NCBI GenBank assembly: GCA_965655095.1
Contig: OZ296657.1
Location: 72,664,001 to 72,728,000 of the forward strand
Length of the DNA stretch: 64,000 nucleotides
Source of the DNA: Haplodiscus bocki
Lineage: Eukaryota
Reading direction: 5' to 3'
Made by a program: the position numbers and the translations under genes. The notes below the pieces were generated by a model. It was not told where the DNA came from. It worked only from the letters and a program-made list of their open reading frames with translations, and did no database searches. Below are positions 6,061-64,000 of this stretch, piece by piece. How positions within the stretch are numbered: the first letter of the stretch is position 1; each line of letters starts with the position of its first letter.

Positions 6061-6135
6061 CTGAAATAGAAAATTGTCGGTATATGCTGAAAAAGTCGGA
6101 TGTTGAAAACTGAAGCCGTGAATAACGCCTCTCAC

Positions 6136-11150: not shown

Positions 11151-11222
11151 AAATATTTTAAAATTAATATTTGATGAGTTTCATTACTACAGATGGCAAA
11201 TAATGTCAGAAAGTGTACCTAC

Positions 11223-35988: not shown

Positions 35989-37810
35989 TGTCCGGCTGAT
36001 GTACGGCTTTACAACAAATGGTACTGTCATTAATTCTGGAATAAGGGCTCAGACGCGGTGTTTTTACCATTCCTTGAACCCACAGAGTCAATTCGTCTAG
36101 TTGACGGGTTAGTTGAGCGATGAATCTTTTGATTTGTTCGTTGACCTTTCAAGTAAAATTCAGGAATATTTGCCTGATTTCTTCCGATTTATTGACGGCT
36201 TTTTTATCTTCAACACTACCGTTTTCACTCAGCGGGGTGTGAGTTTGTGTTATGCCTGTGCCGTCTCTCAAATTTCGATGACTCAAAACCGAGCCTTCAA
36301 GTTTCAAACCTTGAATTTAGCAATGAAATTAGATGTAGTTTTGATTTTAAGAAAAATTGAAGTCTTAATGCAAGCGGGTTCACAAAAATGGATGGAAAAT
36401 AATGAAAACATCAATAACTCCTGAATTTAATTGAAATCAGCTAAGACCAAAATATTTAGTGCTGTGTTGGGATCGTGTGTACGTTCACGCACACGTGAAG
36501 GCTGGCTTTCTGATTGATTGCGTCAAATTCGCGGTGGTGCTTGTTGGATATGCGTGGTCACGTGAACGATGGTAAGACGCAAATCTTTTCGGCTCATTAG
36601 TTGTTTTACTATTTAACAGATATAGGTGTGATCGCAAATTCACCGCAACCGTGTGTGCTATGTTCGTATAACATGGTATTTATGCAAACTTGTTGCAACA
36701 AGGTTAAATAAAATCAAGATGGCGAAAAAAATCTGAATACATCGCTTTCATACGTTATGCAATTGCACAGGGTGAAGTTTGCTGAGTTGATATATTTACT
36801 ACAGCATTCTAGATGCTCTCGTCATTGTCTTACATCAATTTCAGGTTATTTTTGTTTTCATCTGATTTCGTCATTTCGTCTATTTCTAAAGTTGCTATTT
36901 CTTGTCTCGAAGATGTTACTCCTTAAGTTGGATGAATTCTGATGTATTTAATTAGTAGCACAACTCATTGTTCCACTGTTGTTCATGCGTGGGAAATTCA
37001 CTTCGATATAGCCTTGAGTGGATCAAAAGTCATGTATAGTAATTTAATAAGATTACAATGAGGGATGAAAGCAGCACGTCTGTTTAGTCCAGTTTTCATC
37101 GTGTGGGTGCTAAGAGATGCATTTTATCTCGTTTTAATGGTTATACAGAGGCCTCAGTAGTTTGGATCAAACAGAAGAAAAATTAAAACACTGGTAAAAG
37201 CACAATCGGAGGTTTACACTGGTCGTATATAGCCGATGAATTTTGTTTTTGTCAATATTCTGTTCGATCAATATTTAGGAGGCATTCAGTTTCATCAAAT
37301 ATTCTCTGTTTAGCGAAATTCTACCATATAACCGTTCGGAATAAAGTAATAGGAGGATACATCAAATTGATGTCTTCCGATGAAAATAATTTCCGGCTCG
37401 TTTATTAACATTTAGTCTGGCCACTACAGAGGGCACTTGTAGTGGCTTATGGTGTTCCCGTTGGAAAATTCCGGGGTCTTTTGTGTAAGTTCCAGTTACT
37501 CTGAGCCAGCATCCGAAGTTGTGTTTTTCTTGGAATTGTTTCAGCACATTGGGTTCAGACGGATAAAGAGGCTTTTATTTAATCACCAATACATTGTACA
37601 TAGTACATATTGTTGTTTACATAAAACATGAATCTCGTTCGCAGCAGGGAAAGGGAAGTAGGAAAACAATGCAACAATTATACTTCTATCCGGTTTTGTC
37701 TACAGAACAGCATTAAGACCTTGATACTGATAATGGTTTCCTATATATTTGATTAACTGTAAGTTTAGGGAAATGTAATTGTCTCATTATTCCCTCATGC
37801 GGGCCTGACA
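35989..37810 (-). repeat. 3' LTR (1822 bp)
   Basis: Minus strand TGTCAGGCCC...CAGCCGGACA, preceded by purine-rich AGAAGAACATGGGGAG; collinear with 49286-51005. Confidence 0.8.
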
Positions 37811-37826
37811 CTCCCCATGTTCTTCT
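37811..37826 (-). promoter_or_regulatory. Polypurine tract
   Basis: AGAAGAACATGGGGAG abuts the TG of the 3' LTR. Confidence 0.6.
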
Positions 37827-40800: not shown

Positions 40801-43800
40801 GAGCTGGTTGAGTAGCTGTTGGGATTTCAGAGTAGCTGTGTTTTTTTGCGTCTCTTGTCAGTGTCTCTTGTGACATTTTTCCGGGCTTCAACTATCTGGT
40901 CGACAAAGACTCTGATGAGCGGGCAGTATTGTGAACTCATGTTTTCGTGATTTCAAAGCTGAAAATTAATGTCTCGGATGCCAGATTGCGTGTCTTTCCC
41001 ACTTGTGAATTTGTTGCTGTCGACTTTGAAACCCTTTGTGATTCTTCCATAATTTGGCTGTGCGCGGTGTCTATTGCATCTGAGTTTAAGATCCAAGATT
41101 GTGACGTTAGTAATGAAAGTGAAGGAAGAGGTTAAAAGGCAAACATTTAGAGACACGCTAAAGAAGAACTTGAAATTGACAAAATAATCAAACCCAAACG
41201 TTGGTTAAAAAAAGTCACTGAGTTTGGATTAGTGTTTTAGATGAAAAACGATGCTCAATAATCAACATATTGCTGGCTGCGGTGGGCCATGTATACTTTT
41301 CTTATTGAACCTGGGTGTTGATATCAAGCTGTAGCCTATGTCTTCATGGATCTTCTAAGTGACGTGTGTTTGAACTTTTGGTGATATGGGCGTTCTGTCT
41401 GGAGAGCAGGACAAAGCAGGCTTGTGTACGCATAGATGGTCCGCAGGCGGCCCAGCGAGCTCGTGTGTATCGACTAGAGTATGCAGTTTCTTTGTCTCTA
41501 CTTTTCCTGATAAGCGTGTACATGTTGAATTTGTATTTCGTGACCATAAAAAAGTTTTTTTTATTTTGAAATGGGCGAGTTTTGAATAAAAAAACATGAA
41601 TTTGAGTGTTCTGGGTTCTTCTAGTTAGGTAAATGGGGGATGGGATGAAAAGCGATGGAAACTATATGATGGTGAATTGTACCCTATGGTTCGGTCAGAG
41701 ACGCTGGGTGATGTGTATCGAAGATTTTTCATGTTGTGCTTCTCAGTTCTAATGAAGGAGAGCTTTGTTCTCAGTTTTGGCATGGATTCGGACAGAATGT
41801 GTTACGTTGTGGTGGGAGCTGGTGCTTCAGTCGGAAGGTACTCCTTCGCATTTGTATCTTGTCTCTAGTAGCAGAATCACATGACATCCAGGCTTTGGTT
41901 GAGCTAATGGAAGATGTTGTCGTGCCGGATCGTGGGAAGTTTGCGGTGTTATAAGCTGCACTGGAGTGCTGCGGTGGCCGGTATCCGAGTTCTGCTGACT
42001 TCGATTCTTCGTGTGCTTGGAATTGAGCTGTCTCTACATTTCGATGATCATCGGAGAAGAGGTATTTACTGTTCGAGGTGTCATTCATTGTATCTACCGT
42101 TCCCTCGCGTCGCTGGTGTCTCTTATGTTCGTGAGTCTCAGGCTTTTCATGAGTGTCTTTTTCACCATGGGCGACAGCATCATTCTTTCCTGAACACGAT
42201 TCACTTGTCACTTTTTACTTTGGGATATCGTTGGCTGATGAGTTGTTTGTTTGCAGCTCACGACTGTGTCTGGAATCAAGTGTGTTCAATGTTTGATCTT
42301 TTTGATATGGGCGTGGTTCGTGTTTCTCAACAAAATATGACTCTCGTGCGCAATCTTTATTTGGTTGATCGTGTGGAGCCAGGGAGTTAGTTAGAGGGCA
42401 ATGATTGGCTTTGCATTTGCTTTCCATGTCGTTGCAATTTGGGATGGATTGAGCTCGTTGTCAGTGACGAAGAAGAAGGGGCCACTTGTCCTGAAATGAT
42501 GGGCTTTTTTGCTGTTGTTTGTGGTCAGTTGTCCCTGGTGGCCTGCTGTTGGTGCTGAGCTTTGGGTTCGCCAGCGTACATAACCAATTTTTTGGTCTTG
42601 AGGATTGACCGTGCAGTTGCAACTGGTGCAATTCTAATCTCCTCTACGGTAACTTCCTGAGTGAACTCCGTGTTATGTTGTCTCTGACCAACGCATTTGT
42701 ATTTATTGGTTTTGTAACGAATTCTTATGTAGTTATTAGTTGCACTTACCTTTATACAAAGTACTGTTGTTCATGACTGGCTGAATCCATCAATATCTGT
42801 AGCACAGGTAAAGTAGGACTCGGCTGCCAGTGGACAGAAAATGAAAAATAAGAAAAACAGAAACAGAAACCTTGAGAAAAAAAGAAAGAAATTTTAGACA
42901 AACAATTAATATTGGGTGAACAACACAGAAACAGGAAAATTTTTGAAGGAGGAGAATGTGCAGCAAAAAAGTTGCTTTATTTTAAATTTTCTTCCTTTGA
43001 ATTTGTTTTTCCTTCAGTGAAAGCAGGCGACGGATAGACAGGACGTAAGCAAGAAGAAATGTTGATGAGCACACAAGAAAACGAAACAAAGAAGAAAACT
43101 TTCAATAGTCATCTCAATGTGATAAACTTAAGAGAAGTTCATTAAGCCGAACTTTTTCTGGGTTACCTTTGAACTCGAATCTTTTTGCAGGTTCTTTTAA
43201 GTTTTTTTTCGATTTTCTTGGCTGCTGGGTTTCAATAGTGTTCTCCAGTTCAAAGGTCTAGCTGCAGCTGAGTCCTGTTGAGTGATTATTGTATCGATAC
43301 ATTGAATAAAAAGTGTAGAGTATGTAACGGATGAAGATTTCAAGTTCAACGGATGAAGACCGATGGAAACTAAATTTGTTGTAATTTAGAGTATAAGCAA
43401 GGAGGAGATGTGTTGCGAGATCGTGTGTTTTCCAAGTCTGTGTTAGTTCCTATTGAGTGTGCGTGACGTGTGTGGTGCTCCATTCCACGGCTTTCTAAGA
43501 CCAATGAGTAAAATAAGAATTTGGCAAGCGTTTGCTGGAAGACTGATTATTTTCGACACTTTTTGCTGTAAAACGGGTCAGCTGTCTCCAGCTTCTGTGG
43601 AGCAACGGATGTTTCCTGATGATTTCTGTTGTTGACTGGGTTGGGTCTGTGTGTCTGTGTGCCTTTTCATTGAGTTCTGACAGGTCTTAGAGCTGCGGGA
43701 ACATCACGAATTCGATAAATGAAGAAATCCGAGTAGCTTTTTAGAGTTGGATTGGTTCGCAGTCTGTATCGTGTCTCGGTAGATGTAGACGCTTGTGTTG

Positions 43801-46800
43801 TGTTGCTCTTTTGGGGCCCGGCGCCCATCCGTCGGCTGTTCTTGGTGTGTGAGACAGCGAGGTTGTCTCCTATTTAATTTTGATCACCATCTGGAACTAG
43901 AGCAGGGCACTTGTTCGTCCTGATTCCAATCAATTTCCATCGGTGGGTGTTGAGATTGGGCTGTTGTTTGTTCGTGTCCGCCGAGCGAAGTATTGCGTTT
44001 CATTGCTGTCCTACGGGCAACACTTTCTTGGAAGTAAGCGTCGGAAAACATTGGTTTTTTTCCGGAATTGATCTTAGCCATATTTTTCGTCTGTTCCGTC
44101 GTCACTTGCATCGGCTGTTGCGGATGTTATTAGTTTTTCATCGGAAATTTCCGCGTGTTCAAATGCATCCGTATCAGTAAACAGGTTTTTTTGACTGACC
44201 TGAAATTCGTCAACTTCGTTTTGAGATACAAAGGTTGCAAACTCAACTGGTCAACGCATTGATTTTTGTGGGTCCCTTTTCTGACCAATGTTCTAGCTAC
44301 TGTTGGATAGCACTTTCATCCCTTTGAAGGGTCCCTGCCATCGGGCAGCTATAAATTTTTCTTTGGAGCTCTAGTCGTTAAACATTGGTTTCTACAGGAA
44401 CACGAAATTGTTAACGTTAACCTATCGTAAGAGGTTTTGCTTTTAAGGCACGCTATGACGATGTTGTGCAGGTCTTCTAAGCAACTTTCGTTGATATCAT
44501 CTAGTATCCTTTTGATGGTTGTTGGTTGATAATTCAACATGAAGTCTAGTGTCCTGAGTGGTGTCCTACCATGGAAAGACTCCTTTTTAGTGCAAGTCAA
44601 GGAAGCGTGGTGGCTTGTGTTTTGGGCCATGACTGCAATGTTTACGTATTTGTCCCACTGAGGCTGTTTTGCGCTAACGTTAACATGAAAGATGGTTTCC
44701 AATTTTTAATGGTTCTTCTCTCTCGTTCGTATGGCTTGAGTTTGTTTGATGGTTTCGTGTTTGATGCAAATTCCGGCTTGTTTCAACACTACTTCGGCTT
44801 TCACTACATCGGCAATGAAAGTTGTTAAATTGTCCGTCAGGATGGTTTTCGGGATGTATGCGTGGGTTGTGAAAGTCGAAATCGGACCTTTCACGACGGA
44901 CGGTGAGATGAGACTATGCATGAAACCGTTGAATGCTGAAAGTGGTCCTTAATAATTTATTTCCAACGTTCTTCTAGTTCTTTTTTGCGGTCGTATATAT
45001 TCTGCAGGGGCAGTCGTAAGTGTTGTCTGGTTTTTGGTTTCGACTTGATGCAGATCAGACAACTGCCTAGAAACTCCTGCACGTTGTCAGCTAAGTTAGT
45101 ATTGTTATCTAAGCTGATGCAACAACTTTTTTGACACCGAGTAACCCTGCTTGATGTCTTGATGCGGTGTCTGGTGCATGTCTTTCATACGTGATTCTCG
45201 TTCTACTAATTGTTGATAAAAGATTTTAGGTTTGTTGCCAAAGTACTTAGGCAAAGTACCCCTTTGTTAACTTCTAGGCGTCTTATGATTTCATCATGTT
45301 TTTGAAAAACTGGCTTTCAAAGTATACGTGTGCCGGTTGCGCCAGTTCCTCCAACTGTTTTGGTCTTTTTAATGTGCCTCATGTTTTCTTAGACAACTTG
45401 TATTCTAACTGTTTTTGATGGACTAACACTATTCAGTGCTCGGAATGGCAGTGATGTGTTGTGTACAAATATGACGAGTGTCATCTGGTCTTTCACTGAT
45501 GTTTTCCGATGTCAGTCGTCAGAGTGCGTTGACATCCGGTGGACATCGTAAGCTGTCGGTGGGGGCAACTCTCGCTTCATGCCACCTGATAGTTTGTCAA
45601 CCATTGTGCTCAAACGAAGTTTTCGGGTGTATCCATCAGCCTCGTTGTGAGGGTAGAAGCCGGTTTCCTCTTTTATCTTGCTTTAGCATCTTTGAGGCAA
45701 AGTAAACTTCTTTGAAGCGAGGTTAAACACTGGATAACAATCAATTAATTTCAAAAAAAATCCTGAGGTGGAACGCCTAGGTGCGGCAAGTAGTCGGCCG
45801 CCGGATTCTCAAGACCGGGAAACTGAGCTAAGGCAAAATTATATTGCAACGTTTGATCACAGAAATTCCTGTTTGATGTGCAGAAGTGTTTGGCCCCAAA
45901 TGATATAATTAACGCTTTGTTGTTGGTCATTAATATGATAGGTTGTTCCGTTTCCTATAGAATATATCCAAAGTCATCGTTTGGTAGATGCGTTTTCGAA
46001 AATTTTTTATCCGCTCAATGATAGTGATATTTGCCCTGTGCTAAACCATTTCGAATCTAAGGCTACCGAGGGGAACTTGCCGGTTTCTCCTGTTTCGTTG
46101 ACTGTAAAATCTGCGATTAGGTGGACAGAGCCAGCAGCATGTTCGGTGGTGTCAAAGATGTTGAGTAATTGTTTATAGGGTAGGAGCAGTTTCAGCGACA
46201 GTTTGTACGCTTTCAAGACAGTCGTTAATTTCCACAATTGCGTCCCTTTGTTGCTGAAACAGTTTGAAAAGACCATCTTTTCCTAACAGTAAAGGTAACG
46301 GAACTAGTTTTTTGTATATTGTAGGGATTTATTGCCAGTAAAAGTTTACTTGTTTCAAATAGCGTTGAAACGTTCTGACAAAACTTAGCAGCATTTGTTT
46401 ACCGCTCTTCGATGCGTGCAATTCTAGCTTTTGAGACGGTCATTCCTACAAATTCTATCGAGTGTTCACGGAATTGGCGCTTTTCTATGGACAGTTTGGA
46501 ACGTGCTTTTCTTAAATCTTTAAGCACATTGTTAAAGTTTTCGATCAGTTCGGATGCGGTAAGGGCTGCTACACCGTTGTCATCTACGTTCTATGCGCAA
46601 CAATCTGCTTTCACTACATGGTCCAAAGCTTCCCAAATCACACTAGTTAAAGTTGATAAAAAACTATTTAAATTTTATGTTAAACGTCCGTTAGCGAATG
46701 TTCTTCAACCAAACTGAAGCGGGCAACTGTACGGACTGCTCATCTGCCATCTCCACGTGATTTGAAAATTGAGAGTACAGAAGTACTCTTTCTAGGCCAA

Positions 46801-49271
46801 GTGCCGTGTTGAGTCTGAGATTGTCGTCATCGGTTGATTGTATTCTCTTCATTGATGTTTTACCAGCTTGTTTATTCGACGTAAGTCAACTAAAAGAATT
46901 AGCGTATCGTTGGGTTTGCGTTGAGATACAATTGGTGTCAATTACTTCCTGAAAAGAAGTTTGGTTATAAACGCGTGCTCTTGCATCAGTGCAAATACAA
47001 CCAACTAACCGTCCTTCAAGTTTGTCGGAGTCGGGATACTTTTCAAATAGACCGGCTTATCAAATTGTGGTGTTAGCTGAACTTTGATATCTGTGTTTAT
47101 ACCTATGTCTAAGCAATGCCTAGCAAAAAATGAACCTTATTTCACAAAGACGGTTCTACTATAGTTTCCTCATCCCAAAAGAGTAATGATTAGTCCCAGT
47201 TGGACTTTAACAATTTTTTTTTCCTCTGCTCAGCGGATTTTGGCGGGTTCAGCTGCTCTTTGCTCCAGAGAGTGTATATCTCCTCATAGATGCACCTCTA
47301 TAACTTGTTCCGTTTATTTGGATCAACAGACGTCTCCGATGTTGATGTTGGGTACCATCGTTTTACATCGGTTTCTGTCTGTGTGTGGAAAAACTGACTG
47401 AGAATTGAGGTTGTGCTCTTGCTCCTCTGGGTGGTTGTTCATGAGCAACACCTGCGCGTGTGGCACTGGCTTCGTGTTTGTTGCTTGCTATTGGGTCTTC
47501 AAGTTGATGTTTGCCACTGCTAAACAACTGCCAAGTGGGTGGGTTTGGTTGTGGGCATTAGTCCCCTGAGTCATCGTTTTCCCGTTGTCAAGGTGACTAC
47601 TGCCGGCTAAACCACGAATTAGTCTTTTCCCTCGAATGCTCGTGTTGCTTACACGACGCTATTCGTAGGAGCCTAGGTAGCCTCACCTGGGACGTGTGCT
47701 AGCTCCTATCGGAACGGCAAAATCACTGTCTTCTGTGTCGCCTGCCATTCTGTAAAACCGTTCAAGCACTTGTTTTTTGAATCCTTATGTAATTGCATTG
47801 ATATGCCGGGAAGGTGTACTAAATGAGGTTATACGTCAACAGTTTTGGAGTGTGTTTCAAAAAAAGACTCTTGTATCACTAAAGTTTCCCATTGTTAGTA
47901 GGACCTCAAAAATTGCTTCGGAGCTATGTCCTGCTTGGAAAAAAGGTAACTGCACTTGTTTCATGATTTTGACTAAATTGCCGTTGGCGATCTGAATTTT
48001 GAACTCGGGGACTGGCATCTCCGGTAGTACGGCTTCTGGGTGTCCGACCGTTAATTTGCGAAGTTTTGATTTTAAGTGGGAATTTCCGTTTCGGATTGTT
48101 CCGGTGTCCAGAAGAACATTTGCCTCGCACGTCTCAAAAGGATTGAGTAAAGCATTCCATGATTCTCAAGGATTTTCCTAGTACTTTGAAATTGATTTGA
48201 AGCTGTTTTTTGTCGTTAAACATAGAAATGGAATCAAAATCGTTATTACGATTCGTTTTTAGATACCACTCCATGGAGTTTGTCGCTCTCGCTTTTGTCT
48301 CGTCTGCGGTCCGTGTGAGTCGCTGATTGGTTATCGTCCCGTCATCAGGTGTGCAGGACAGGTGAAAATTGATGTCACCTTCGATCAGTTTGTCAGCCAA
48401 GGCGTCAAAACATTTTGGTCTTTGGCTTTTGACCGTCATTATTGAGTGATTGTCCTCTACTGTCATCGTGTCTGGCGTTTGTTGTTCTTCATCATTGGAG
48501 GCTGCCTTCTCCCCTCATGCTAGTGTTATCGGTGTCAGTAATCCGTAGTTGTGGTTGTCGTTTGATTTAGTTGTCGCACAACTGTCGTATTGTTAGATTG
48601 AAGACGTGGCGTGTATACTAGTCCTAATGCAGTCGTTTGTGAAAGGAAACCTTTATTCTTCTGGGGTGGCATCCTCTTCATTGCTATTCATTAAGTCTTT
48701 CTGGATTGAGTTTGGGAGTTTGCCGAAGAAAAATGTCTGTATACTTTAACCCAAAAATTCTAGCAAAAACTGATTCAGGAAGTCTGAGAACGTGATGTCT
48801 GTGGGATCGTAAACTCAGTGGTCCAATTCAGAACAGGTGATATCCTTGGGGTCAATTTTGGTGAAATCTTTCCAAAACTTTTTGAATACGTCATTCGAAT
48901 TTGTTTTTCGGTGACGGTGAGTGGCTAGTAGATTTGGATTTCTTGTTCTTGGAGTAGGCTTTAAAAGTACTGGAGCTTCGCCCTTTTAGTCAGTCTGTTA
49001 CTCATCGGGCGCAGGTGTACCCTCAACAAGTGTTCGAATTCGTTGAACTTGTCTTTCGTTCCTCGGTAAGTGGGCACTTGCGTCTGCAAACTTTGGGCAT
49101 TCTTCGTTTGGGTTCGGCTGCGTATTTTCGTGATGGCTTCAGGCAAGTGTTAATAAGGTCGGTCAGTTCTGGTAGCAACTACTATCGGAAACGTGTTTCG
49201 TGCTCGCTGTATGATAATTCATCGTGGGTGTTTGGGCTGGTCATCGGTTGCTGTCTCTTCCGGGGTTCAGT

Positions 49272-49285
49272 GGCTCCTCTCACCA
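49272..49285 (-). promoter_or_regulatory. Primer binding site
   Basis: TGGTGAGAGGAGCC directly follows LTR end ...CCCGACA, exactly where homology between the two LTRs stops. Confidence 0.65.
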
Positions 49286-51005
49286 TGTCGGGCTGAGGTA
49301 CGGCTTTACCACAATTGATACTGCGATCAGTTCTGAGGTAAAGGTTCTGATGCGGTGTTGTTACCAGCCCCTGAACCCTCCCTCCCCCCCCCCCCGAATC
49401 AATGCCTCTAGTTGACTGGTTAGTGAGGCGACAAAACTTTTGTTTTGTTCGTTGAATTTTCAAGAAAAATTCAGGAACATTTTCTTTGTTTCCTCCGATT
49501 TTTCAATGGCTATCTTGTCTTCAACAGTATCGTAATCACTCATTGTGGGATTTGAGTTTGTGACATACCTGTGCCATTTGTCATTTCCCCATGAGTTAAA
49601 ACCGAGCTTTCAGATTTTAGAGCTTGAATTTAGCCATGAAATTTTATGTGACTTGCAGTTTAGCAAAAAAAATGAAAGTCTAAACGCAAGCGGGGTTACA
49701 AATGCGGTCGGAAATTGATGAAAACTTTAGTTAACCCTAACTGCAAATTGAATCAACTAAGATCAAATAATTAAGTAGTATGTTGGCAGCATGTGTACAA
49801 TCCCGCAAACGGGAAGGTTGGCTTCCCTATTGATTGCGTCAATTTCGCGGTGGTGCTTGGTGGTTATGCATGGTCACGAGTCCAGAGGCGAGATGCGAAT
49901 CGTTTTGGATCGCTAGTTGTTTTACCATTTAACAGATATAGGTGTGAGCGCAAATACACCGCAACCGTGGCGGCTACGTTCGTATGACATGCTAGTTTTG
50001 CAAATTTGGGGCAACAAGTTTGCATAAATTGAACATGGCTGAGTGTATCTAGATACATCAAAAACATACGTAAAAAGGCGCCGGGTGAATTTTAGAGTGT
50101 TAATACAATATATACAGAAGTCTAGATGTTCTCATCTTTGCCCAACATCATTTGCAGGCTTTTTTGGTTTTTATCGTAATTCGTCATTCCGTGTATTTCA
50201 AAGATTGTCTTTTCCAGTCTGGTGGCTGTTATTCCTTAAGTCGTGCGAAATCCGATATAATTTATCAATAGCACATCTCATTGTTTCCACTCTCGTTCAT
50301 GCGTATGAAAATTATTTCGATAGAGCGTTGAGTGAACGAATAACGATGTAAAATACTTTTTCAAAACATAATGAAGTTTCGAAGAAACATTTCTGCCTTA
50401 TCCGCTTTTCATCCCGTGGATGATAACAGTCTTGTTTTAATTTTTCTGATAATCAATACATGAGGTTTCATCGTTTGGACGAAAATTCATAGAAACTCAA
50501 ACCACTGGTGAAAGCACAGTCGGCTATTTACACCGGTCGGAAGCAAACCCATGAATTTTGTTTTTGTCTTTTATCTAATCCGTCATTTTTATAGGTCTAT
50601 AAGTATCCATAAATTTTCATTCTTCAACGATATTCTACTGTGTGACTGTTCGGAATGAATCCATAGATAGCAACATCAAACTGATGTCTTCTTTTGAAAA
50701 TCTATTCCGGATCTTTTTTTACCACTTTGTGTGGTCACTACAGAGTGCATTCGCAGCGAATCATGTATTCCTGTTGGAACGTTCCGAGACTTTTTAAGGC
50801 AGCTCTAGTAACTTTGATGCTTTATCAGAATCTCTCTATTTCATTGAATTATTTCAACAGTTTGGTTTCAGATGGGTAAAGACGAACTTTTTTGCACAGC
50901 AATACTCTCTACATAGTTAATATTTTGCTGTTTACTTATAACATAAATTGCAATCATACCAGTGGAAAGGCAAGTAATTGAACATAACAACATTTTTACT
51001 TTTAC
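49286..51005 (-). repeat. 5' LTR, outer ~120 bp missing or interrupted
   Basis: Direct repeat of 35989-37685 at roughly 70% identity by eye. Confidence 0.8.
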
Positions 51006-54000
51006 AAACTTTGGCTAAGTTGCAATGAGCTCTTCATGATGCTCTTGGATTCAAACAAATTAAAGTTAAAAGTTGAGATAGGTTATAGCTAAGTTACTTG
51101 AACCAGGAAATGTGGAGGCTCCCCCACTCTAACCGAGAGTTCTCGGCTGTTTTTCGGCGTAACGATGTTCAATTCTAATTGGCTGACAAGGTTTCTGGTT
51201 TTTTTTTAGATTGATTGTGATTGGCTGCCGACAAATTTACGGTTTTGGGTTAAGTTCGACTGTGTTCGGCGCCGTATTGAGACTGTATGTTAATGTCTCA
51301 GTATAAGGTATGGAGTTTTATTATGTACAAAGATATGGAGTTCAGTATAATGACTCAGTTTTGGCAACGTGAGACTTTTTCGAAAAAAAACTTTTTGAAA
51401 ATTTTCTCGGGTACCCAACGCCTGGACTAAACATCATGCAGCTTGCAGACAAAGTGCAATGCCGTCGTTCAATTTTTACGTCTGCAGAAGTTCAGTAGCT
51501 TTGTTAATAAATTTTTGCTACGTATAATTATCAAATTTTGACTAGAGGTACAACTTTGGGTGTTCTCCTTCGTTTGCCCAACACATTATTGTACTACAAA
51601 AGTAATATGACAGGCAAGGTTTATTGATACTGTATAAGTTTGGGTTCCTAGTTTATTTATTGTGAAAAGAAGGAGTCTTCTGTCGAACTCCTTGAATAAA
51701 ATACTTTACAGTAAAATAAATATGGTTTTCTCGAAGGAAAAATCATAATGTTCACCGTTGTCACTATTGCTGCGACGTTCAAGTAACACCCGTGATTCTT
51801 GAACTGACATGGAACAACCAAAAAACATCTTATGCCAAAAATAGCGTAAGTTTGAATTGTGATGAAAAATGTCCTTGGTGAGCAAAAAAGTAATTGATTT
51901 AGTGTGACAGATTTTTTAAAACAAACGTTTCGGCCATGAGGTTGACAAAAAAATTTCTAAACATCCTAATGGTTTTTGTCCTTTTAATCTCTGTTACGTG
52001 ATTTATCAAATAAATATGGGAATTGTTTGTAGTTGCTCCTGATTGAGTAATTGCGCAGAGACACCTCTGCGTTACAGCATAACAATTAAACAGTAGTTTA
52101 GCGGCGAAGTATCTGTATAATGACGAAGACGTTTGAATGCACACCATTCAGCAACTGACCGTGAAATACTGTACGACACTGCTACCTTTTGGTGATTTCT
52201 GACAGAAAAAGTATGTTTGCAGGCTTTTGTTTGGGTTTTTTGCCCCAACCGTGGAACTTTCAGCCAGGCGAGCATACAAAAGTTTAAATATGGGGGTTGT
52301 TTCATAAAATTCCAAGAACTTAAATCCACAGTAGCTAATTTTCTACTCCGGTTGAGTTTTTCCGTCGAGCTGTTGTGTGATACGGCTGCTCTTGAAATGT
52401 GCCTCAAAAAATATCGACGGTACAAGTTTTCAATTGGTGAGAGAATTAACGTGGAAAAAGTCATAGAAAAGAAACTGTGGGAAAATTAAATGTATTTTGA
52501 TTGGTGCTTTGCAACATTTCCAAAAACAATTTCTCACCTGCGGCAGAGTTGAGCCAGCATGAAAAAATGCTAGCAGTAGACGTTGCCAGAGACTGAGATA
52601 ACAAGAAACACTTAGATGCTGACTTTTTGAAAGAGAAAGAAAAGCATGTAGTAACAGAAAGAGCTCTATCCATTAGCTAGTGAAATTAAATTCTGTGGCT
52701 TCATCGCTTTAAAAATGTTGTTATCTGTAAGTACGTTGATATTTCATTTCTAAAATTTACAAAACCCCCTTCAAAGTCACCAAATCTATCCAAAAGCAAA
52801 CAACCACTCTCCAAAAAAAACAGTCTGATTCTTACCTTTAATAATGTTTGGGATGCGATGCAGCATCTCTGTTGGCCTTCTCTTCAAAAATTTGTCTTTT
52901 TTATTGTTGAATTCATCTGATTTTTGAATTGTTTTCTCACTTTTTTTCAGCAACAACTGGCATCTGTTCAATTCTTTTGAAGTGTTATTTAAAGTCTGCA
53001 GCTCTCTCTGAAAAGTTCGTCCTTTCTTTGTACACACAGTCCCGTTGAATCTGAATTTGCGCACAATCTAACAACGTTCCTCAAGCTGATCTGTGAACTC
53101 AGCCTCCTCCAACTTTCCTAAGATTTTTCTCATACCATTTTTTTCAATGATTAGTGTATAACATTGAATTTTGTGTTGAGAAAGAAATATTACACTATGA
53201 TTTCCAGAGCAAAAAATCCAAAGACTAGATTTTTCTCCTGATGATCTGCAGAGTTGCACGAACAGTTTGTGAATGGTTTGGTTAGAAGGCGGGCTTTAGT
53301 TGTAGTAGAACGGCAGCCATCGTTGTTGCATCAATGTTGTCTATTCAAGTATATCTCGAACAAAAGATGACTTAGCATTAATACACTCAAACGCCTTTTT
53401 ACTTGGTGTACATATATAGATAAAATAAAGAGTCTTCTAAACTTAACGGGAATTTTGTTGACGAATCAGATTGAAAGAATTTTAGGCTGGTTCACGAGCA
53501 CCAGATATGGGAAACGTTTCTACAAACGGTTGGTAGCCAGAAAGGATTTTTACAGAGAGAACAGTTCGTGGAGTGACAACGTTGCTGACTCTTATTCAGG
53601 AACTTCAATTTTCACCAATACTAGAAAACTGATTCCTGGATGGATGAAAACCGAGGCCTCTACCGATACACCAGTTTCCAAACAATTTTAATGGTCTTTC
53701 GTTATCCTGGTTTACGGAAGCTTCCAACCACCGAATAACAAGCACATTAGCAAAGGTGGTTACCAGCTGGAGACCTGAACTTTCGAAAAAATCTAGAAAA
53801 TTTAGAGTTTTTCTCAGATATATCCAGATAATTCTTGAAAAAGAAGGAGGAAAACAATCCATTTTGGGGGATTTTATTCAGAAATTATATCATTTATCGC
53901 TGTACATGGTCCAATTTGAAAGTCTTTTCCTGTATCGCACTCTGTTCTTCTGCTTTGTTTCTGCACAACTGTCTTCACAAGTTACTTTGCTGTTTTGACT

Positions 54001-54478
54001 GAGAGAAGGGATTCATTTAAATAGTGATTTCAACATTAACAAGAGTGAAACAGAAAGATTGCAGTAACTTGACTGTAGTAATGCGGAAGAAATAATAGCG
54101 GAATTTTTTTAGCAAGTGAAACGCATAATTTTGAACGAAATCTGGGGATACTGTAGCAGGAACGACAGTATTACATGACCAAAAAAGGAACAGCTGACAG
54201 CTGATTCACGTAACCGTCAAAAGAAAAGTTGATTCACATAACCATAAAAAGAGCCGCTAATCAGTTATTCCTTTCTTCAAAGTCGACAATTGATTGAAAA
54301 AGAAATTGACTGGAAAAACAATTCATGATATCAAGCAGAGACATTTTGCCCAACGAAGTAAATCAAGCCGAGCAATTTCCTCTCATATGATGACAAACTG
54401 TCGGAGAAAATCAGTCAAGTAGATTAGTTTCCTCTGATAACGAGACGACTTGTCTGCAACAATCAATCAAGAAAATTG

Positions 54479-54780
54479 TTCAGAAACTGATTCATTTAGT
54501 GCTGTTCAGCGTGACAAATATGCCTCTCTTCCCGTTTTGCACTCTATTTTTCTTTGTTGTTTCTGTACCAATGTCCTCACAACTAACTTGAGAGAAATAA
54601 AAAAAATAAAGAGAGTCCAATCAAGGAGTTTGTTCAGAAATTGATTCATTTAGTGCTGTTCAACGTCACAAATGTGCCTGTTGTCCTGTTTGGCACGCTA
54701 ATCTTCTGAGTTGTTTCTGCACCAAAATCCTCGCAACTAACTTTTTCGATATGATTGAAGGAACGGATTCCAAAGGAAAG
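54479..54780 (+). repeat. 154-bp tandem duplication, mirrored at ~62770-63120
   Basis: ttcagaaa.tgattcatttagtgctgttca at 54479 and 54633. Confidence 0.8.
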
Positions 54781-57234
54781 TGTTTTCAACAATGATCAGG
54801 AGGAAACGATAAGATCGTAGCAATTTGACTGATGTAATGTGAGAAAATAGTGGCGAGGTTTAATTAGCACGTAGTAGTTATTACTTTCCATCTACTTAGG
54901 AGAGACTGTAACAGGAAAAACCATTGAACGAAAGACTTTTGTACAAAACCAAACAAAACATTGTTTCACATAACCAAAAAAAGAGCTGCTAATCCTTTGA
55001 TTTCCCCTCATAGTCGACATATGGTTTTTGAAAAACACTTATTGATAAAACATTTTATGTTCTCCAGCAGAGACTTTTTGCTCTAAGAAAGTAATCGAAC
55101 AGGGCAAGTTGCCCTCATAGCATGACAAGCTGTCGGAGAAATTCAATCAGGTTGAATAATTTCCTTTGGTAGGGAGACACTTTGACTGTGACTATTAAGC
55201 GAGTGGAAGAAACTTCCCTGACAATGACACATATTGTCTGATTATGGTCGTCAAATTGAACAAAATTCTTTTGAATATGCGTTGAGTACTTCCGTGTCAA
55301 TTATCGATCAAATACGTGAAAAGAAAGCAAAGTAAAATTTGCACATTGATTGTAGTGTGCAAGTTAAAAGCAGTCGAACGACAACATGCACGACATTTAT
55401 CACCAGCGAAGAAGTCCCGTTGTCCGGAGTTTTTCAACTCTAAACTGCAGCTTCATATTTTTTTAACCGACGAGAAACATTTATATCTCTTTGTTTTAAA
55501 AACAAGCAAGGCATGTGTTGCCATCACTTAAAGTCGAAATACCTAACCCACAATCACTGCAGGTGACGGGGTGTTGTAAACAACTGATTTTGAAACGCAA
55601 AATTATGTCAATTCTGGCACTAAAACCCCACCAAAGGAAAGACTAACTTTCATTGGAAATAAGTCCTGTTTTTGACAGAAAAGGAAAGATATTCCTTATA
55701 AAAAGACTCATTGCGTAACTGACAAGGAAAGGGTCGATTTTTTATGGAAGATAGGTATCACTTGGTTGAAACTGTATGCAAGCGGCAAGCCGTTGTTCAG
55801 AAGAACATTTGTATAAAAATTGTTCCCCAAGAACAACAACTAGTCTCTTCTGGCCACCATTTAACACAACCGCTGGTGACTTTTGTCATCAAAATTTTTT
55901 AACGGTGAGAACTACTTGCTCAATCATCGGTAGGAAGTACAGTTTCTTCCCTTTGCAAGAAGCTATGGAAAACTACAACAAAACCAAAAAACCTCTTAAT
56001 GATCCTTCAAAACTGGCGTTTGATTCTACTTGGTTGCGGGAAGTCGAGTTTTTTGCAATTTTGGTAAAAAAAAACTCAGGAAGACAGTTTCACTCGATGA
56101 TATGGTGCACTTCATTGATGACGAGATCATCGAGACCTATGTAGATTTTATTTCTGGTATTACCTCCTAACCTGAAGCCCTTACAAAAATCAACTGTATC
56201 AACCGGGATCGGAAAATTGTTTGCAGACCCTGTGAAAACCCACTGAACCCCATGTAACGATCAACCTACCTGTTCGATCGATGTCAAGCATACCTCTATC
56301 AATTTTATGGGCTCCTGCAATTTATGAGAGATGGATCCAGCAGCTCATCTATCACTCAACCACCTTCCCGATAGGGAACCTATGACCATGCATTTAACTC
56401 AAACATCAACTCATCAACTTAAAACAAACTTATCTACGGTTTTATCTTCATTACGGTCGATGGACAGTGAAAGGAAGGCGTTGCGCGTCAGCTTTCTATT
56501 CTTTCAAAGCAATCATTTACCTGACGGTCGGGTGAACGAAACAGTTGCTACAGTTGAAGTTTTGATATTTTTGATAGGAATCCCTGATCAATGTATGGAG
56601 TGCCTTCCTTTGTGCCGAACTGTAATTGTAACTAGGAGTAATTTTTGTTTTAGTTGTTTCATTTCTATCATTTGCTTGTTCAGTGTTTTTTTGCGTTTTT
56701 TCGAAGTTCACTTTTTGAACCAAACTTTTGATGAAGTTGACGAAGAACGAAAACTTGATCAACAAGCAAAGTGTGAACTAACGCTCCCATAAGCACCCGA
56801 GTTCACAGCCTAGACCCAATTTTTTGCAAATGTTCATCCTGCACTACTACATAGATGCACACCCTGTTCAACATTCAGTGACTAAAACCTACTTCGAAAC
56901 TTGAACAGGTCGTTTCTATGTCCTATAAAATAACATAACACCTAAAGGAGTCATTAAAGTTGGACTCTCCATATCCGTAGTTGGCAAAGCCTACAGTCTC
57001 TATTGAAACAATTGCGAAAACCAATCCCTGTCTAAGTATTATGATGAACACACTTAGTTCGTATTAGCTCCCTTAAAATGTCTTGATAAGTTGATTGCTT
57101 ATGCCAAAACCGAACTCTACCCTAAACATTCATTTGACCATCGGAAGCCACACCATAGTTTAAGACATTGCCGAAATGTAACTTATTTTGATAGCTGGGT
57201 GAAAACATGAAGAATTGCAGAAGAAGTGGATGGA

Positions 57235-57335
57235 AAATCTGACACGTTGTAAAAACGTTGGTTCAAAATCTGACGCTTTGTAAAAAAAATTTATTCAAGA
57301 TCTGACAGGTTTTAAAAGAACTGGTTCAAGCTGAT
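57235..57335 (+). repeat. ~31-bp tandem units (AAATCTGAC...GGTTC), mirrored at 60290-60385
   Basis: Three copies of aaatctgac-----gtaaaa---ggttc in each arm, with more degenerate copies out to ~57620. Confidence 0.7.
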
Positions 57336-58529
57336 TTGGTTTTTTCACAAAAAGGTTTTGCTTCAGAATCTTGCTTTTGAATATGTCGCTTCTCTGGACT
57401 AAATGGAGTCAATATGGTGTCTTTTGAATGCTATATTTTCTTCGCAATCTGTCTTTTTTATCAAAAGAAGATGATCCAAAAACAGACGCCTTTTAATACT
57501 TTCAAGTCGAAACCTGACGCGTTGCTATTAAAACTGATTCCAAAACTGTAACGTTATAAACTTTTTGTCTGAAAATCTGAAAAATTTTTAAAGTTTTCCA
57601 CCCAGGATTTGACACATAGGAAAATTTCATAATCGTTTTCTTTCACTTGCTCGCTCTTATACTGGCTGAACGATCAGTTCTGTTGGCAACATTAGAAACA
57701 CTTTGTTGCAGAGAGCCGAAGCCAGAGACACTGTCTGTCATAGATTCCATCGCCACAAGTTCAAACAAAAATTGGAAGGCAATTCCATTACAATATCAGT
57801 TGGGAAGAACACCACTATGATGATTGATATTTTTCACGAAGCCTCTGGTCAAAACTCTCTGGAGCATAAAACCCGACAGATCAATGGTATTTCTCAAGAT
57901 AAAGCTGTTTGAAAGACAAAAAGAAAAATTTTGGTTGAAATTCCGTTCATTTTCATCAAAGACATTGTGTGAGCGACAACGAACAATAGAGCGATGGGAA
58001 GAAACTGACGCCTACACAGAATCAACACGTTACCTAGATTGGGTGCTGGACGTCACCCAACACAGTCTCGGCACCCAAACAAAGTTGACAATGTTTGCTC
58101 AAAAAGTTTTATTCAAGGCTAAATTGAGCCAAAACCTACCGTTGGTAGCCGAAAACATCCCGAACTCTTAACCCATCATCATACAAGGTCGAAGTACAAT
58201 TTACCGCAATGGACAGGTGTAGACACTTCGCAGATCCACGGCTATATGACAGGTTTTGTTTCTCAGGTCGGACAGACTTTGCACTCTATCCTAATACTTT
58301 GCCGAGCGCAGTCTGATTGGATGGTTGATCGTAATACTTTGGCAGCTGAACGCACTAGGTCTCTCACCAAAGCCAACCGATAACTCAAGTCAAGGACTCG
58401 GGTCCTCCAAACCCACACCGTACATTGCAGAATTGTGCAGCGTCTAAATACTTTGCCGAAGAAGAATACCAAAAATTAACACATTGTCGAAGTGTATTTT
58501 ATCCTAATACAATGCCCATTTTTACAAAA

Positions 58530-59201
58530 CTTTGGAAATTTGCGACGTTCACCCTTTTTCACTACTCTAGGCAAATTTACCCTATCTTATTACATTGCTG
58601 GTGTGGAGCCTTTGATAACACATTGCTGAAGCATATCTAATCTTGACATTTTGCTGACGTTTACCCTAAAATGATAGTTTGTATTTTAGGTAATTTCATA
58701 GACTATACTTGCAAAAACTATCAAATTAGGGTAAACGTCAGAAATATATCAATGTTGGATATACTTTGGCAATGAATTATCATAGGGTAGGCACCAGCAC
58801 TGTATAAAGAAAGGGTATACTCCAGCGAAGCCTTAAAATAGGGTAAATGTCTTCTCTGCACTAAGATAGGGAACACTTCGAAAATGTTTCAAGAAAATGT
58901 AGACATGAGCAAAAGGACAAAGTAAGTTAAATGTCGGCAATGTGTTAAGAAATTGTAAAATTCGGCAATGTACTAACATAGGGAACACCGCGACAACGTA
59001 TCAAGAAAATGGACACTTTCACAAAGTTTTAAGATAGCGTATAGTTCACTAATGTATTTCGGTAGAATAAAGAATGGCAATATGTCGAAATTGGATATAC
59101 CTCAACAATGTGTTATCATAGGGTACACACCAGCAATGTAAGAAGATAGGGTATACCTGCATAAAACACTGAAAAAGGGTAAACGTCGGAAAATCCCGAA
59201 A
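58530..59201. repeat. Two divergent arrays of a degenerate 28-bp unit
   Basis: Core ATAGGGTAWAC starts at 58726, 58782, 58810, 58838, 58866, 58978, 59034, 59118, 59146 and 59174 on +, and at 58669, 58613, 58585 and 58557 on -; all spaced by multiples of 28. Confidence 0.88.
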
Positions 59202-62200
59202 GTTTGTAATAGTGGGCATTGTATTAGGATGAAAACTAATTCGACAATGTGTTAAAATAGGGTGTTCTTCTTCGCAAAGTATTCAGAGGCTGCATAATTC
59301 TGCAATGTACTGTGTGGGTTTGGAGGACCCGAATCCTTGACTTGAGATATCGGTCGGCTTTGGGGAGAGACCTAGTGCGTTCAGCTGCCAAAGTATTATG
59401 ATCAACCATCCGATCAGACTGCGCTCGGCAAAGTTTTAGGTTAGAGTGTAGAGTCTGTCCGATCATGGAAAAAAACCTGTTGTGTAGCCTTGAATCTGAG
59501 TAGTGTACACACGTGTTCATTACAGTAAGTTGTTTTTCGACCTTGTATGATGATGGGTTATGGAATTGGGAATTTTTAATCCAGCAAAGGTATATTTTGG
59601 GTGGAACATGGCTTGAAAATTGCTTCTTGGTAAAAACAATTTTGTTGTAGGGCCGAGACTGTGGTGGGTGACTTCTAGCACCCAATCTGAATAACCTTTT
59701 TCATTTCCTTTTTCGAACAAGTATATCTGGACGAATACTGTTGTTCTGCTGGATTTTAGGCTCCACGAATTTCTGTCCACAGTTTTCGTGAAAAATGTCA
59801 AGCGTCGTAACGCTGTTCCTTCCAGATTGATAGTGTAATGAATGTGTGTTCCAATGTTTGGTTGTACATTTGGCGATCGAATCTAGAACAGGCAGTGTCT
59901 TTTAGTTCTGCTCTATGCAACGAGGTAATTGTTTTGTTGCAAACAGAACTGATCGTTCAGCCAGAGCATGAAGGAAGAATTGAAAAAAAAAGGTTTTGGA
60001 TTTTTTTACGTGTGAGTTCACCAATGAAAAATTTTAAAACTTTCGAACTTCGATATGAAATGTTCAGAACGTTACAGAGTTCGAATCGATTTTTACAACG
60101 CGTCAGTTTCCGAACTGAAAGTACTACAACGCGTCTGTTCTTGGATCAGTTTTTTTTTGTTGAAAAAATAAATTACGAAGAAAAACTAGCATTCAGAAGA
60201 ACAAATTTGACTCCATTTAGTCCATGAAAACGACATTTTTGAAAGGAAGTTTCTGAAGCAAAACCTTTTTCGATTAAATCAAATCAACTTGAACCATTTG
60301 TTTGAAAACTTGTCAGATCTTGAACACACTTGTTTACAAAGCGTCAGATTTTGAACCAATGTTTTTACAACGTGCCAGATTTTGCATCCACTTCTTCTGC
60401 AATTTTTCATGTTTTCACCCAGCTATCAAAATAAGTTACATTTCGGCAATGTCTTAAACTATGGTGTGACTTCCGATGGTCAAATGAATGTTTAGGGTAG
60501 AGTTCGGTTTTGGCATAAGCAATCAACTTATCAAGACAATTATGGGAGCTAATACGAACTAAGTGTGTTCATCATAATACTTAGACAGGGATTGGTTTTC
60601 GCAATTGTTTCAATAGAGACTGTAGGCTTTGCCAAGTACGGATAAGAAGAGTCCAACTTTAATCACTCCTTTAGGTGTTATTTTATTTTATAGGACATAG
60701 AAACGACCTGTTCAAGTTCCGAAGTAGGTTATAGTCACTGAATGTTGAACAGAGTGTGCATCTATGTAGTAGTGCAGGATGAACAATTGCAACAAATTGG
60801 GTCTAGGCTGCGGACTCGGGTGCTTATGGGAGCGTTACTTCACATTTTGCTCGTTGATCAAGTTTTCGTTCTTCTTCAACTTCATCAAAAACTCGGTTTG
60901 GAAAGTGAACTTCAAAAAAACACAAAAAAACACTAAACAAGCAAATGATAGAAATGAAACAACTAAAACAAACAAAACTACTCCTAATTACGATTACAGT
61001 TTGGCACAGACGGAGGCACTCCATACATTGATCAGGGATTCCAATAAAATATCAAAACTTCAACTGTAGCAACTGTTTCGTTCGTCCGACCGTCAAGTAA
61101 ATGACTGCTTTGAAAGAAAAGAAAGCTGACGCGCAACGCCTTCCTTTCACTGTCCATCGACCGTAATGAAGAGAAAAACGTAGACAAGTTTGTTTTCAGT
61201 TGATGAGTTGATGTTTGAGTTAAATGCATGGTCATAGGTTCCCTATCGGGAAGGTGGTTGAGTGATAGATGAGCTGCTGGATCCATGTCTCATAAATTGT
61301 AGGAGCCCATAAAATTGATAGAGGTATGCTTGACATCGATCAAACAGGTAGGTTGATCGTTACATGGGGTTCAGTGGGTTTTCACAGGGTCTGCAAACTT
61401 TTTTCCGATCCCGGTTGATACAGTTTTTTTTGTAAGGGCTTCAGGTTAGGAGGTAATACCAGAAATAAAATCTACATAAGTCTCGATGATCTCGTCATCA
61501 ATGAAGTGCACCATATCATCGAGTGAAACTGTCTTCTTGAGTTTTCTTTTACCAAAATTGCAAAAAACTCGACTTCCCGGAGCCAAGTAAAATCAAACGG
61601 CAGTTTTGCCGGATCGTTAAGAGATTTTTTGGTTTTATTGTAGTTTTCCATAGCTTTTTGCAAAAGGAAAAAATTGTAGTTACTACCGATGACTGAGCAA
61701 ATAGTTCTCACAGTAGACAAGTTTTGATGACAACTTCCACCGGCGGTTGGGTATATTGGTAGCCACATGACACTAATTGTAGTTCCTGGGAAACATTTTT
61801 CACAAAAGTTTCTTCAGATTAGCAACTTGCTGCTTTTGTACGCTTTCAGCCAACTTAACTTGTACGGAAACTGCTTCTTTTTCGGTCATTCACACGACAT
61901 ATTTCCAAGTAAAGAAGTCTTTTATTGGAGTCAAGAATTAAAAAGGTTCTGTTTTCTTTTTTCTGTTGATTACAATGCCGCATCATTTTTATTGGTTGGG
62001 GTTGGGAATTTCCGATTTTCAGCAAGAACAACACTGGCATTGCTTTTCTTTAAAATAAGAAAAAACAGAACTAAAATTTTTTTTGCTGCTTGAAAATTGA
62101 ACTTGCAGTTTATTGGTTAAATTCTTCGGTTAAATAGATTTCTTTACTGGTGAAAACTGTCCTGCATGTTGCCGTTCGAATGCTTTTAACCTTCACACTA

Positions 62201-64000
62201 CAATCAAGATGCAATTTTTTATTAATCTTTTATCGGCTTGGATCGGTACTTGACATGGAAGTACTCCCTGCATATTCAAAAGAAATTTATTCAACTTGAC
62301 GGCCATACTCAGACATTATGTCTCATTGTCAGGGAAGTTTCTTCCACTCGATTAATTGTCACGGTCAAATTGTCTCCTTACCAAAGGAAATTAATCCACT
62401 TGAGTGACTTTCTTCGACAGTTTGTCAGCCTATGAGGGTAACTTGCTCTGTTTGATTACTTTCTTAGAGCAAAACGTCTCTGCTTGAGAAGATAAAATGT
62501 TTTTTCAATGAATGTTTTTCAATAACCATATGTCGACTATGAGGGGAAATCAAAGGATTAGCAGCTCTTTTTTTGGTTATGTGAAACAATGTTTTGTTTG
62601 GTTTTGTACAAAAGTCTTTCGTTCAATGGTTTTTCCTGTTACAGTCTCTCCTAAGTAGATGGAAAGTAATAACTACTACGTGCTAATTAAACCTCGCCAC
62701 TATTTTCTCACATTACATCAGTCAAATTGCTACGATCTTATCGTTTCCTCCTGATCATTGTTGAAAACACTTTCCTTTGGAATCCGTTCCTTCAATCATA
62801 TCGAAAAAGTTAGTTGCGAGGATTTTGGTGCAGAAACAACTCAGAAGATTAGCGTGCCAAACAGGACAACAGGCACATTTGTGACGTTGAACAGCACTAA
62901 ATGAATCAATTTCTGAACAAACTCCTTGATTGGACTCTCTTTATTTTTTTTTATTTCTCTCAAGTTAGTTGTGAGGACATTGGTACAGAAACAACAAAGA
63001 AGATTAGCGTACAAAACGGGAAAAGAGCCACATTTGTGACGCTGGACAGCGCTAAATGAATCAATTTCTGAAGAAACTCCCAGATTTGACTCTCTTTATA
63101 TTTTTTATTTCTCTCAATTTAATGTTGTTTCATGACTCTGCACTTTTCTTTAGTAACAGTTAGACATTAGTGAACGAGTTACTCCTTTTAAAAGTTGTAA
63201 TCCGTTCTCGTGCAAATGAATGTCAAATCTTGTCCCTCAATCAACTACTGCGTTGGTAACTTTTGCAGGCTACATTATGACTGTAGATTCTCCTAGTTTG
63301 ATTGGTGAGAACATTGTTAAACTACTGTGATGTTATGTGGTGCGTGTCTAATCTCCTACCTTAAACCTTTTTGGTTCTGTTTTGCATAAGCAAACAGAGT
63401 GTTGTTCATTTAAATGACAAATTTGGCCAATTCTGACAGGAACTCTAAAATTCGGAGACATCGTCCAAAAACTTACATTTTTTGCTTGTTACCATTTTTG
63501 CTTAGGTGTTTCTTAATCGGTGAATGAATGCTTCCGTAAATCAGAGAAACGAAAGACAAGTAAAAAGTTTGGGAAAGTCGTGTTTTGGTAAAGAGCTCAA
63601 TTTTCATCCATCTACGGAGCTGCTTTCGTCTCTTGGAGAAATTTAGGGTTCGTTGAAGAACAGTAACCAATGTACTCACTCCACATACGTATTTATGTTG
63701 ATCATTCCAAGCTACCAAACAAGTATGAAAACCTTTTGTGTATCTGGCAATGGTGGATCAGCTTGAAAATCTTTTTAATCCTGATTGGTCAACAAAAATT
63801 TGCTGAACTTTTTAATTTCTACCCCTATCTGTACATACAGTTTCAAGCAGCTTCTCTGTACTTGCGCCAATTCAATTGTTGCTTGAAAATTTTTTGAGTA
63901 GACAACACTGTTGCAACAACGATGGCTGCTGTTTTGCTGTTTTGTTAAGAGCTAAGACCAAGTTTTTCACAGAAGTCTTCGTTCATATCCGTCGATCACT
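58698..64000 (-). repeat. Right arm of large inverted repeat (runs off window)
   Basis: 62524-63001 is the reverse complement of 54550-55026; 63420-64000 matches 53240-53830 at low identity. Confidence 0.92.

Follow-up and report, generated by a model that had tools for sequence, protein, structure and literature searches.

The stretch of DNA analyzed here, a window of 64,000 nucleotides from Haplodiscus bocki (GCA_965655095.1, contig OZ296657.1, positions 72,664,001 to 72,728,000 of the forward strand), ends in a large palindrome. Collinear minus-strand matches in a self-BLAST reveal inverted homology from 53304 to 63938 around a centre of 34 nt, which makes the palindrome at least 10.6 kb long. 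The longest match pairs 54465-57928 with 63086-59697 at 84.6% identity over 3478 columns; 58024-58654 pairs with 59700-59077 at 80.7%, and 53304-53845 with 63938-63405 at 65.8%. The innermost arm segments, 58578-58680 and 58715-58817, lie 34 nt apart. A first-pass annotation made from the letters alone had placed a nearly spacer-less axis at 58697/58698, which our alignments bear out. Its collinear arms are also real, but the outer limit it gave, 53240, is a mere mirror image of the window end, and significant homology starts at 53304. No second copy of the arms was found in 1-53250. The parts of the palindrome, to which no strand is assigned, are:

53304-58680: left arm, from self-BLAST; it may reach further left, its mirror then lying beyond the window
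58681-58714: unpaired centre of 34 nt, the right half of which continues the 28-bp array of the right arm
58715-64000: right arm, with homology detected to 63938; it runs off the window, and a read contig goes about 4 kb past
53869-54460: older duplicate, left arm only, 66% identical to the unit 54625-55256
54464-54743: tandem duplicate of 155 bp, present in both arms (right, 62807-63128)

Reads across the axis

The palindrome is real. Reads were available from four runs on two samples of one study (S1 with three runs, S2 with one), S1 possibly being the assembly's own source and hence not a fully independent check. Depth is given as contig depth at 80% identity or more, a measure that misses old copies and is not a copy number. 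A 1059-nt contig covering 58336-59394 spans the axis in all four runs, with 0, 0, 2 and 2 differences, and the presence of two junction variants in the reads argues against a chimeric molecule. The annotation had proposed reads over the axis as the test for misassembly, and read contigs cross it here in both samples and in two variants. In run X1 the junction contig has a depth of 20.5, compared with 20-24 for flanking unique contigs; near-identical copies of the junction elsewhere are not indicated by this depth. The axis region 58560-58840 folds into a hairpin with a z-score of -10.3, and none of 200 shuffles folds as well.

Towards the axis (48001-64000), the depth of long unique contigs drops in run X3 (34, 23, 19, 11, 10, 10, 20, 41) and in X2 but not in X4, possibly through loss of palindromic molecules that snap back. 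An artefact of assembly or of chimeric reads is extremely improbable. Such an artefact would sit well with the dip in two of four runs and with S1 as a possible source of the assembly, but not with a junction recovered from every run, in two variants and both samples, nor with arm differences that are rich in substitutions and look old.

Patchy homogenization of the arms

Mean identity between the arms is 86% over 3998 aligned columns, with bins of 100 nt ranging from 64% to 100% and graded edges. Bin variance is 0.0116, whereas 2000 permutations gave 0.0024 at most; identical columns run on for up to 477, compared with no more than 97 in the permutations. These two values exclude uniform divergence. 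Outside the patches the background is about 65-77% identity, similar to that of a neighbouring pair of long terminal repeats (LTRs). The putative conversion patches, again without strand, are:

54550-55026: patch 1, left; 477 identical columns with one 1-nt gap, partner 62524-63001
62524-63001: patch 1, right; partner 54550-55026
56050-57290: patch 2; 90-97% identity, partner about 60330-61570, overlapping DNA of very high depth
58255-58456: patch 3; 91% identity, partner 59274-59475

Arm-to-arm gene conversion is the simplest cause of these patches and very probably the true one; the tracts themselves, far more alike than arms of this age should be, are observed directly. This patchy homogenization is the clearest process at the locus and had been missed by the first-pass annotation. 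S1 read contigs end 29 nt inside the identical tract in both arms, at 54579/54997 and 62553/62972, and the sole S2 contig listed at the inner right edge of the tract ends at the identical base, 62553. Depth in the bins of the identical tract is about three times that of unique DNA, so the tract is not a young high-copy insertion.

Substitutions between the arms comprise 344 transitions and 387 transversions. With 0.36 in one large converted patch and 0.39 in the other, compared with 0.38-0.39, G+C content shows no rise. At nine variant sites checked, the alternative letter equals that of the partner arm in six and the reference letter does so in three, a result that ordinary polymorphism would match. 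A bias of arm differences towards G:U pairing on one strand, which would suggest selection on a hairpin RNA (endogenous small interfering RNA), is absent (176 versus 168, p = 0.71).

The axis lies within a 28-bp array

Both arms end in a degenerate tandem array with a unit of 28 bp, one of the short repeat arrays that had been noticed at first pass and that we confirm with units of 28, 31 and 155 bp:

58420-58680, minus strand: left degenerate 28-bp array; 7 units above threshold, the G-rich strand pointing away from the axis
58696-59310, plus strand: right degenerate 28-bp array; 17 units above threshold, with unbroken register over 58724-59199

Units of the right array have a mean identity of 61% to the unit consensus. 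The strand of the array flips at the axis, and the register of the right arm continues into the spacer. The 28-bp register is exact for 17 scoring units of the right array and for 5 of the left one, as far as a 1-nt shift shared by both arms. Left unit 1 pairs with right unit 1 (23 of 28 positions) and left units 2-5 pair with right units 14-17 (20-24 of 28), which puts the difference between the arms at 12 complete units, or 336 nt. These additional 336 nt of the right arm at the axis are one of three asymmetries, together with the left-only duplicate of about 600 nt at 53869-54460 and a left-only stretch of 99 nt. No terminal motif or target-site remnant is recognizable at the axis, which falls inside the array; an end that once lay there may have eroded. 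This anatomy is what would be expected of a strand that folded back inside an array, the centre later losing its symmetry.

A telomere fusion was considered and rejected: the orientation of the G-rich strand, which leads away from the axis, and the unit length of 28 bp both speak against it. The excess of sigma-70-like matches in the array (19 versus 3.2) is a by-product of the unit. No Rfam family reached its gathering score; the axis hairpin drew two weak matches to microRNA models, which reflect its shape. No tRNAs were found. At 59120, the three runs on S1 give the array a summed depth of 35,541, 11,894 and 49,934, compared with 1,899 in S2, where unique contigs are deeper; this could be a real difference in abundance between the samples or an effect of contig building (85% of the S2 run was read). 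Other pieces of high depth or high score carry the motif of the 28-bp unit (51213-51249, 57161-57188 and 60429-60456), which suggests, judging by the motif, a binding site common to several repeat families.

Inner arms belong to a dispersed repeat family

The first-pass annotation took the arms for copies of a repeated element and not unique host DNA. This is correct for the inner arms, which match a dispersed family:

57195-58680, plus strand: old copy of the family, with 31-bp arrays, core and 28-bp array; it includes an apparently spurious open reading frame (ORF) at 57824-58171
58715-60422, minus strand: mirror copy, including an apparently spurious ORF at 59520-59882
57234-57329, plus strand: left 31-bp array, with a degenerate second array at 57462-57560
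60312-60384, minus strand: right 31-bp array

The family unit consists of 31-bp arrays, a core and the 28-bp array; it covers at least 57195-58680, and its 28-bp side faces the axis. A search with a profile built from the two mirror ORFs beside the axis retrieved 34 predicted proteins among 1.84 billion, the best being the window's own, and a wider profile retrieved 150 among 1254 candidates. All of the 120 matches listed come from ENA assemblies, and none of these has a Pfam domain or a name. The window is matched by 168 of the 174 retrieved ORFs, and only at 57100-58700 and 59000-60500; 19 reach the 31-bp array and 2 reach the 28-bp array. Family copies occupy at least 131 contigs (156 ORF copies), a dispersal demonstrated for the inner 1.5 kb. 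The two copies in the window stand apart from the family: they agree at 16 of 35 core residues, where the family median is 22. Summed depth reaches hundreds to thousands at 56011-57612, at 60283-61884 and in the 28-bp array, which indicates that these segments are abundant elsewhere.

Family ORFs switch reading frame relative to one another, and conservative changes are not in excess of the neutral level among their substitutions (BLOSUM -0.64 versus -0.41, for 73 of the 174 sequences). They are therefore best read as chance ORFs on a repeat, and by its sequence the inner arm repeat is apparently non-coding. At least 150 probably spurious 'proteins' have been placed in public collections by this repeat.

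Coding content and a virus-like origin

The right arm holds four ORFs of at least 120 aa compared with 0.75 in Markov shuffles, and a control region at 12-34 kb is in excess as well. No codon-position bias is significant, and the ratio of nonsynonymous to synonymous differences (pN/pS) is 0.6-1.6 over five pooled regions, with single short blocks scattering between 0.3 and 4.5. The case for decayed ORFs in the arms, made at first pass, is weak: with an excess in the control region too and no coding signal, they look like by-products.

Pfam scans of 51061-64000, covering 108 ORFs, six read-through frames and 54 read-through pieces, gave no real family; three unrelated matches, two from the ORFs and one from the pieces, all fell below the cut-off. 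The scans agree with the earlier impression that the arms hold no recognizable transposase or exon. Among 139 ORFs in the rest of the window, Pfam found none of the hallmark viral or transposon families. The sensitivity of these scans on decayed DNA is low, as the neighbouring reverse transcriptase (RT) reached only E = 0.003, and the six read-through frames of 37-51 kb yielded no match and missed the RT. Word-based searches, which are weak for old copies, returned no homologue of 55770-56141, nor did the Atlas for two ORFs, with the same weakness. A Walker-A-like word at about 56030-56055, seen by eye, was dropped as unsupported. Penelope-like elements with an inverted pseudo-LTR carry a hammerhead ribozyme and a reverse transcriptase; here we found no Rfam hammerhead, one loose match to the core motif only, and no RT match in the arms.

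The palindrome had first been interpreted as a possible junction between two terminal inverted repeats (TIRs), in a concatemer, circle or resolved hairpin, of a long-decayed linear virus-like element such as a Polinton. Hairpin-ended DNA viruses have tandem arrays beside a near spacer-less axis, and the geometry here, with arrays flanking just such an axis, fits. The arms are moreover a repeated element, and pairs of family copies on the same contig could be the two TIRs of one element. Polintons encode pPolB, an integrase, a capsid protein and a packaging ATPase. The linkage to such genes that was proposed as a check was not found: none of these families, nor a transposase, was detected in 51061-64000 by the Pfam scans, weak as they are on decayed DNA. 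The axis lies in an array lacking a recognizable terminal motif, the arms are about 25-35% diverged outside the patches, and junction depth is at the unique level. Motif scans of viral and metagenome contigs gave 0 matches, none of 279 candidates from viral searches was confirmed, one further viral hit had no DNA similarity, and the TIRs given for virophages in the consulted part of PMC8547959 measure 0.2-2.3 kb. We regard this origin as unsupported and very unlikely. Two short locus matches to the family ORF (L001 and L002) were rejected as lacking DNA similarity, and a locus search of prokaryote genomes gave no match to it.

Origin of the palindrome

We favour, with a confidence slightly better than even, an inverted duplication that is old and specific to this locus, consists of non-coding DNA derived from repeats, arose by fold-back in the 28-bp array and was followed by conversion. 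One copy of an abundant host repeat would have supplied the 28-bp array in which a strand broke or stalled. Having folded back over a loop of about 34 nt, the strand would have copied at least 5.4 kb in the reverse direction; another junction, further out, would then lie beyond the visible DNA. Slippage or a centre break may subsequently have changed one side of the array, by exactly the 12 units seen, and other indels would also have broken the symmetry, a change that stabilizes such palindromes. Drift took the arms to about 65-77% identity, and nothing in it points to coding constraint; repeated conversion between the arms very probably reset patches to 90-100%, the 477-nt tract being the latest. 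A function need not be invoked to account for the palindrome.

Several observations weigh against such an origin. The outer junction and the end of the right arm lie outside the visible DNA. In the unconverted core of 35 residues the arms agree at 16, hardly more than each does with the family (medians of 15 and 13), which leaves one duplication unproven against two copies of old date. Depth as measured here overlooks old copies, the family core having only about 5x depth yet more than 150 homologues, so the outer arms may be family sequence too. Two or more copies occur on 19 of 131 contigs, which hints at a property of the family and not a one-off accident. Finally, the spacers of human fold-back duplications are at least 766 bp in the portion of PMC3907307 consulted.

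The shared contigs were identified among 156 ORFs with a known contig, contigs of equal size being taken as the same. Were the copies dispersed at random, 1.8-11.8 contigs would be expected to be shared if the assembly size is taken as 1.5-0.2 Gb; among contigs of up to 60 kb, 9 are shared compared with 0.3-1.9 expected. Of the 26 multi-member clusters listed, 20 were checked and 11 of these had two members on one contig; one more such pair was found separately. The local partner is the nearest relative in 9 of 12 scorable shared contigs (for instance 0.98 versus 0.60, and 1.0 versus 0.66); the other 7 of the 19 could not be scored, and many pairs were found through being at least 90% alike. 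Two contigs, of 147,782 and 131,092 nt, hold five copies (P0021, P0142, P0145, P0147, P0172) and three copies (P0135, P0173, P0174) that cluster across the contigs; they are perhaps two haplotypes of one multi-copy locus.

These pairs bear on a different proposal, a version of the giant foldback named as the alternative at first pass: that the family is a giant non-autonomous foldback (two-TIR) transposon. Its arms of at least 5 kb would be built from 155-, 31- and 28-bp modules and would join at a central array, leaving hardly any middle domain; it would be moved as a unit by a transposase encoded elsewhere, and conversion would keep the arms of each copy alike. The modular arms with unequal unit numbers resemble Galileo and Tetris as described in the consulted parts of PMC3573991 and PMC4079207, and the shared contigs with their closely related partners fit as well. 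Direct pairs such as LTRs or tandem duplicates would, however, account for the same counts. One of the 174 ORFs, P0003, runs from the core straight into words of the 31-bp array, a head-to-tail junction, three contigs hold 3-5 family copies, and none of the ORFs includes an antisense segment. In the scheme excerpted from PMC4079207, tandem repeats occupy the outer domain, not the centre, and the window shows no terminus, target-site duplication or transposase. We therefore consider a foldback transposon unlikely. The wider claim is equally tentative: the window might represent an old member of a family of giant (more than 11 kb), transposase-free palindromic elements at 100 loci or more, perhaps undescribed, no literature search having been aimed at this repeat. 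That the phased 28-bp array acts as the fold-back or resolution centre of such elements, and that conversion preserves the likeness of each element's arms well beyond the divergence between loci, is likewise speculative. If the local pairs elsewhere proved to be inverted, arms of more than 5 kb would be about three times as long as the longest foldback TIRs reported in the consulted parts of the papers on the compared elements. Conversion tract length and the survival of palindromes could in that case be measured directly, from a hundred dated examples within a single genome.

Alternatively, two old and independent copies of one large repeat (a TIR element, or an LTR with internal part) might have come to lie end to end, in inverted orientation, by insertion or recombination, the join then eroding and the copies homogenizing. 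Background identity between the arms is indeed at the family level, their indels and array lengths differ, and chimeric two-TIR copies of Galileo exist according to the consulted text of PMC3573991. Such a joining would nevertheless have to account for a gap of just 34 nt between arms that both stop in one array, and for their nearly perfect stem (25/27 nt); no terminal motif or target-site remnant marks the join, and, by eye, the arms share unusual residues with few retrieved copies. We judge such a joining to be distinctly unlikely.

Comparison with known palindromes and inverted repeats

The following comparisons refer to the consulted portions of the cited sources. The P1-P8 palindromes of the human Y (PMC8600007) and those of the mouse X (10.1101/800185) and primate X (PMC8327919) likewise have inverted arms on one chromosome that are homogenized by copying. 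In contrast to these, the arms described here are about 5 kb long, gene-free and patchily converted (65-100% and not above 99%) around a 34-nt centre, and their genome is invertebrate-like in showing no CpG depletion. Fold-back inverted duplications (Hermetz et al. 2014, PMC3907307) and short yeast foldback insertions (PMC11724301) share a junction in repeat DNA and a non-duplicated spacer that continues one arm. This hallmark of fold-back is also seen here, the register of the right-arm array entering the 34-nt centre, although the human cases are recent terminal rearrangements with spacers of 766-70,466 bp while the present one is old.

Galileo two-TIR copies (PMC3573991) and Tetris (PMC4079207) have long modular non-coding inverted arms with variable tandem repeats and a proposed conversion among copies. 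The palindrome has such arms with tandem repeats and its inner 1.5 kb belongs to a dispersed family, but TIRs of Galileo and Tetris reach 1.25-1.74 kb and come with target-site duplications and a middle domain, whereas here arms of more than 5.3 kb meet in a central array. Asymmetric length change also breaks the central symmetry in centre-break stabilization, which was shown for transgenes within generations (reviewed in PMC8701086) and is suggested here by the 336-nt asymmetry. Polintons/Mavericks and EMALEs (PMC8547959) have long TIRs whose end-to-end joining would produce such a junction, but their hallmark genes were not found here. The processes of palindrome survival at the locus are known biology; what the locus offers is a clean natural record of them in a near spacer-less palindrome, with unit-wise asymmetry at the centre, drift and graded resets by conversion.

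Genomic setting

The window has a G+C content of 37% without CpG depletion and contains a gap of 200 N at 34594-34793. An intron-split gene for a divergent G-protein alpha subunit lies on the minus strand at about 5860-11430 (Pfam G-alpha, E = 2e-37), presumably of the Gs subtype. Old duplicates occur in its 3.5-kb intron, as does a tandem pair of 85 bp (8962-9125). Just beyond the left arm, one frame of 52789-53295 on the minus strand runs for 168 codons, interrupted by only one stop, and a splice-donor-like site comes after it; the word-based search, weak for old copies, gave no homologue. A decayed LTR retroelement of about 15 kb, which we take to be Ty3/Gypsy, occupies 35989-51061 on the minus strand. 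Its LTRs are direct repeats of 1.75 kb that are 71% alike, a match to RVT_1 (E = 0.003) falls below the cut-off, and protease-, RT- and integrase-like words are visible by eye. Two smaller repeats complete the window: an inverted pair at 479-658 and 5441-5626 (69% over 190 nt) and an old tandem pair of about 165 nt at 33103-33426 (65% alike).

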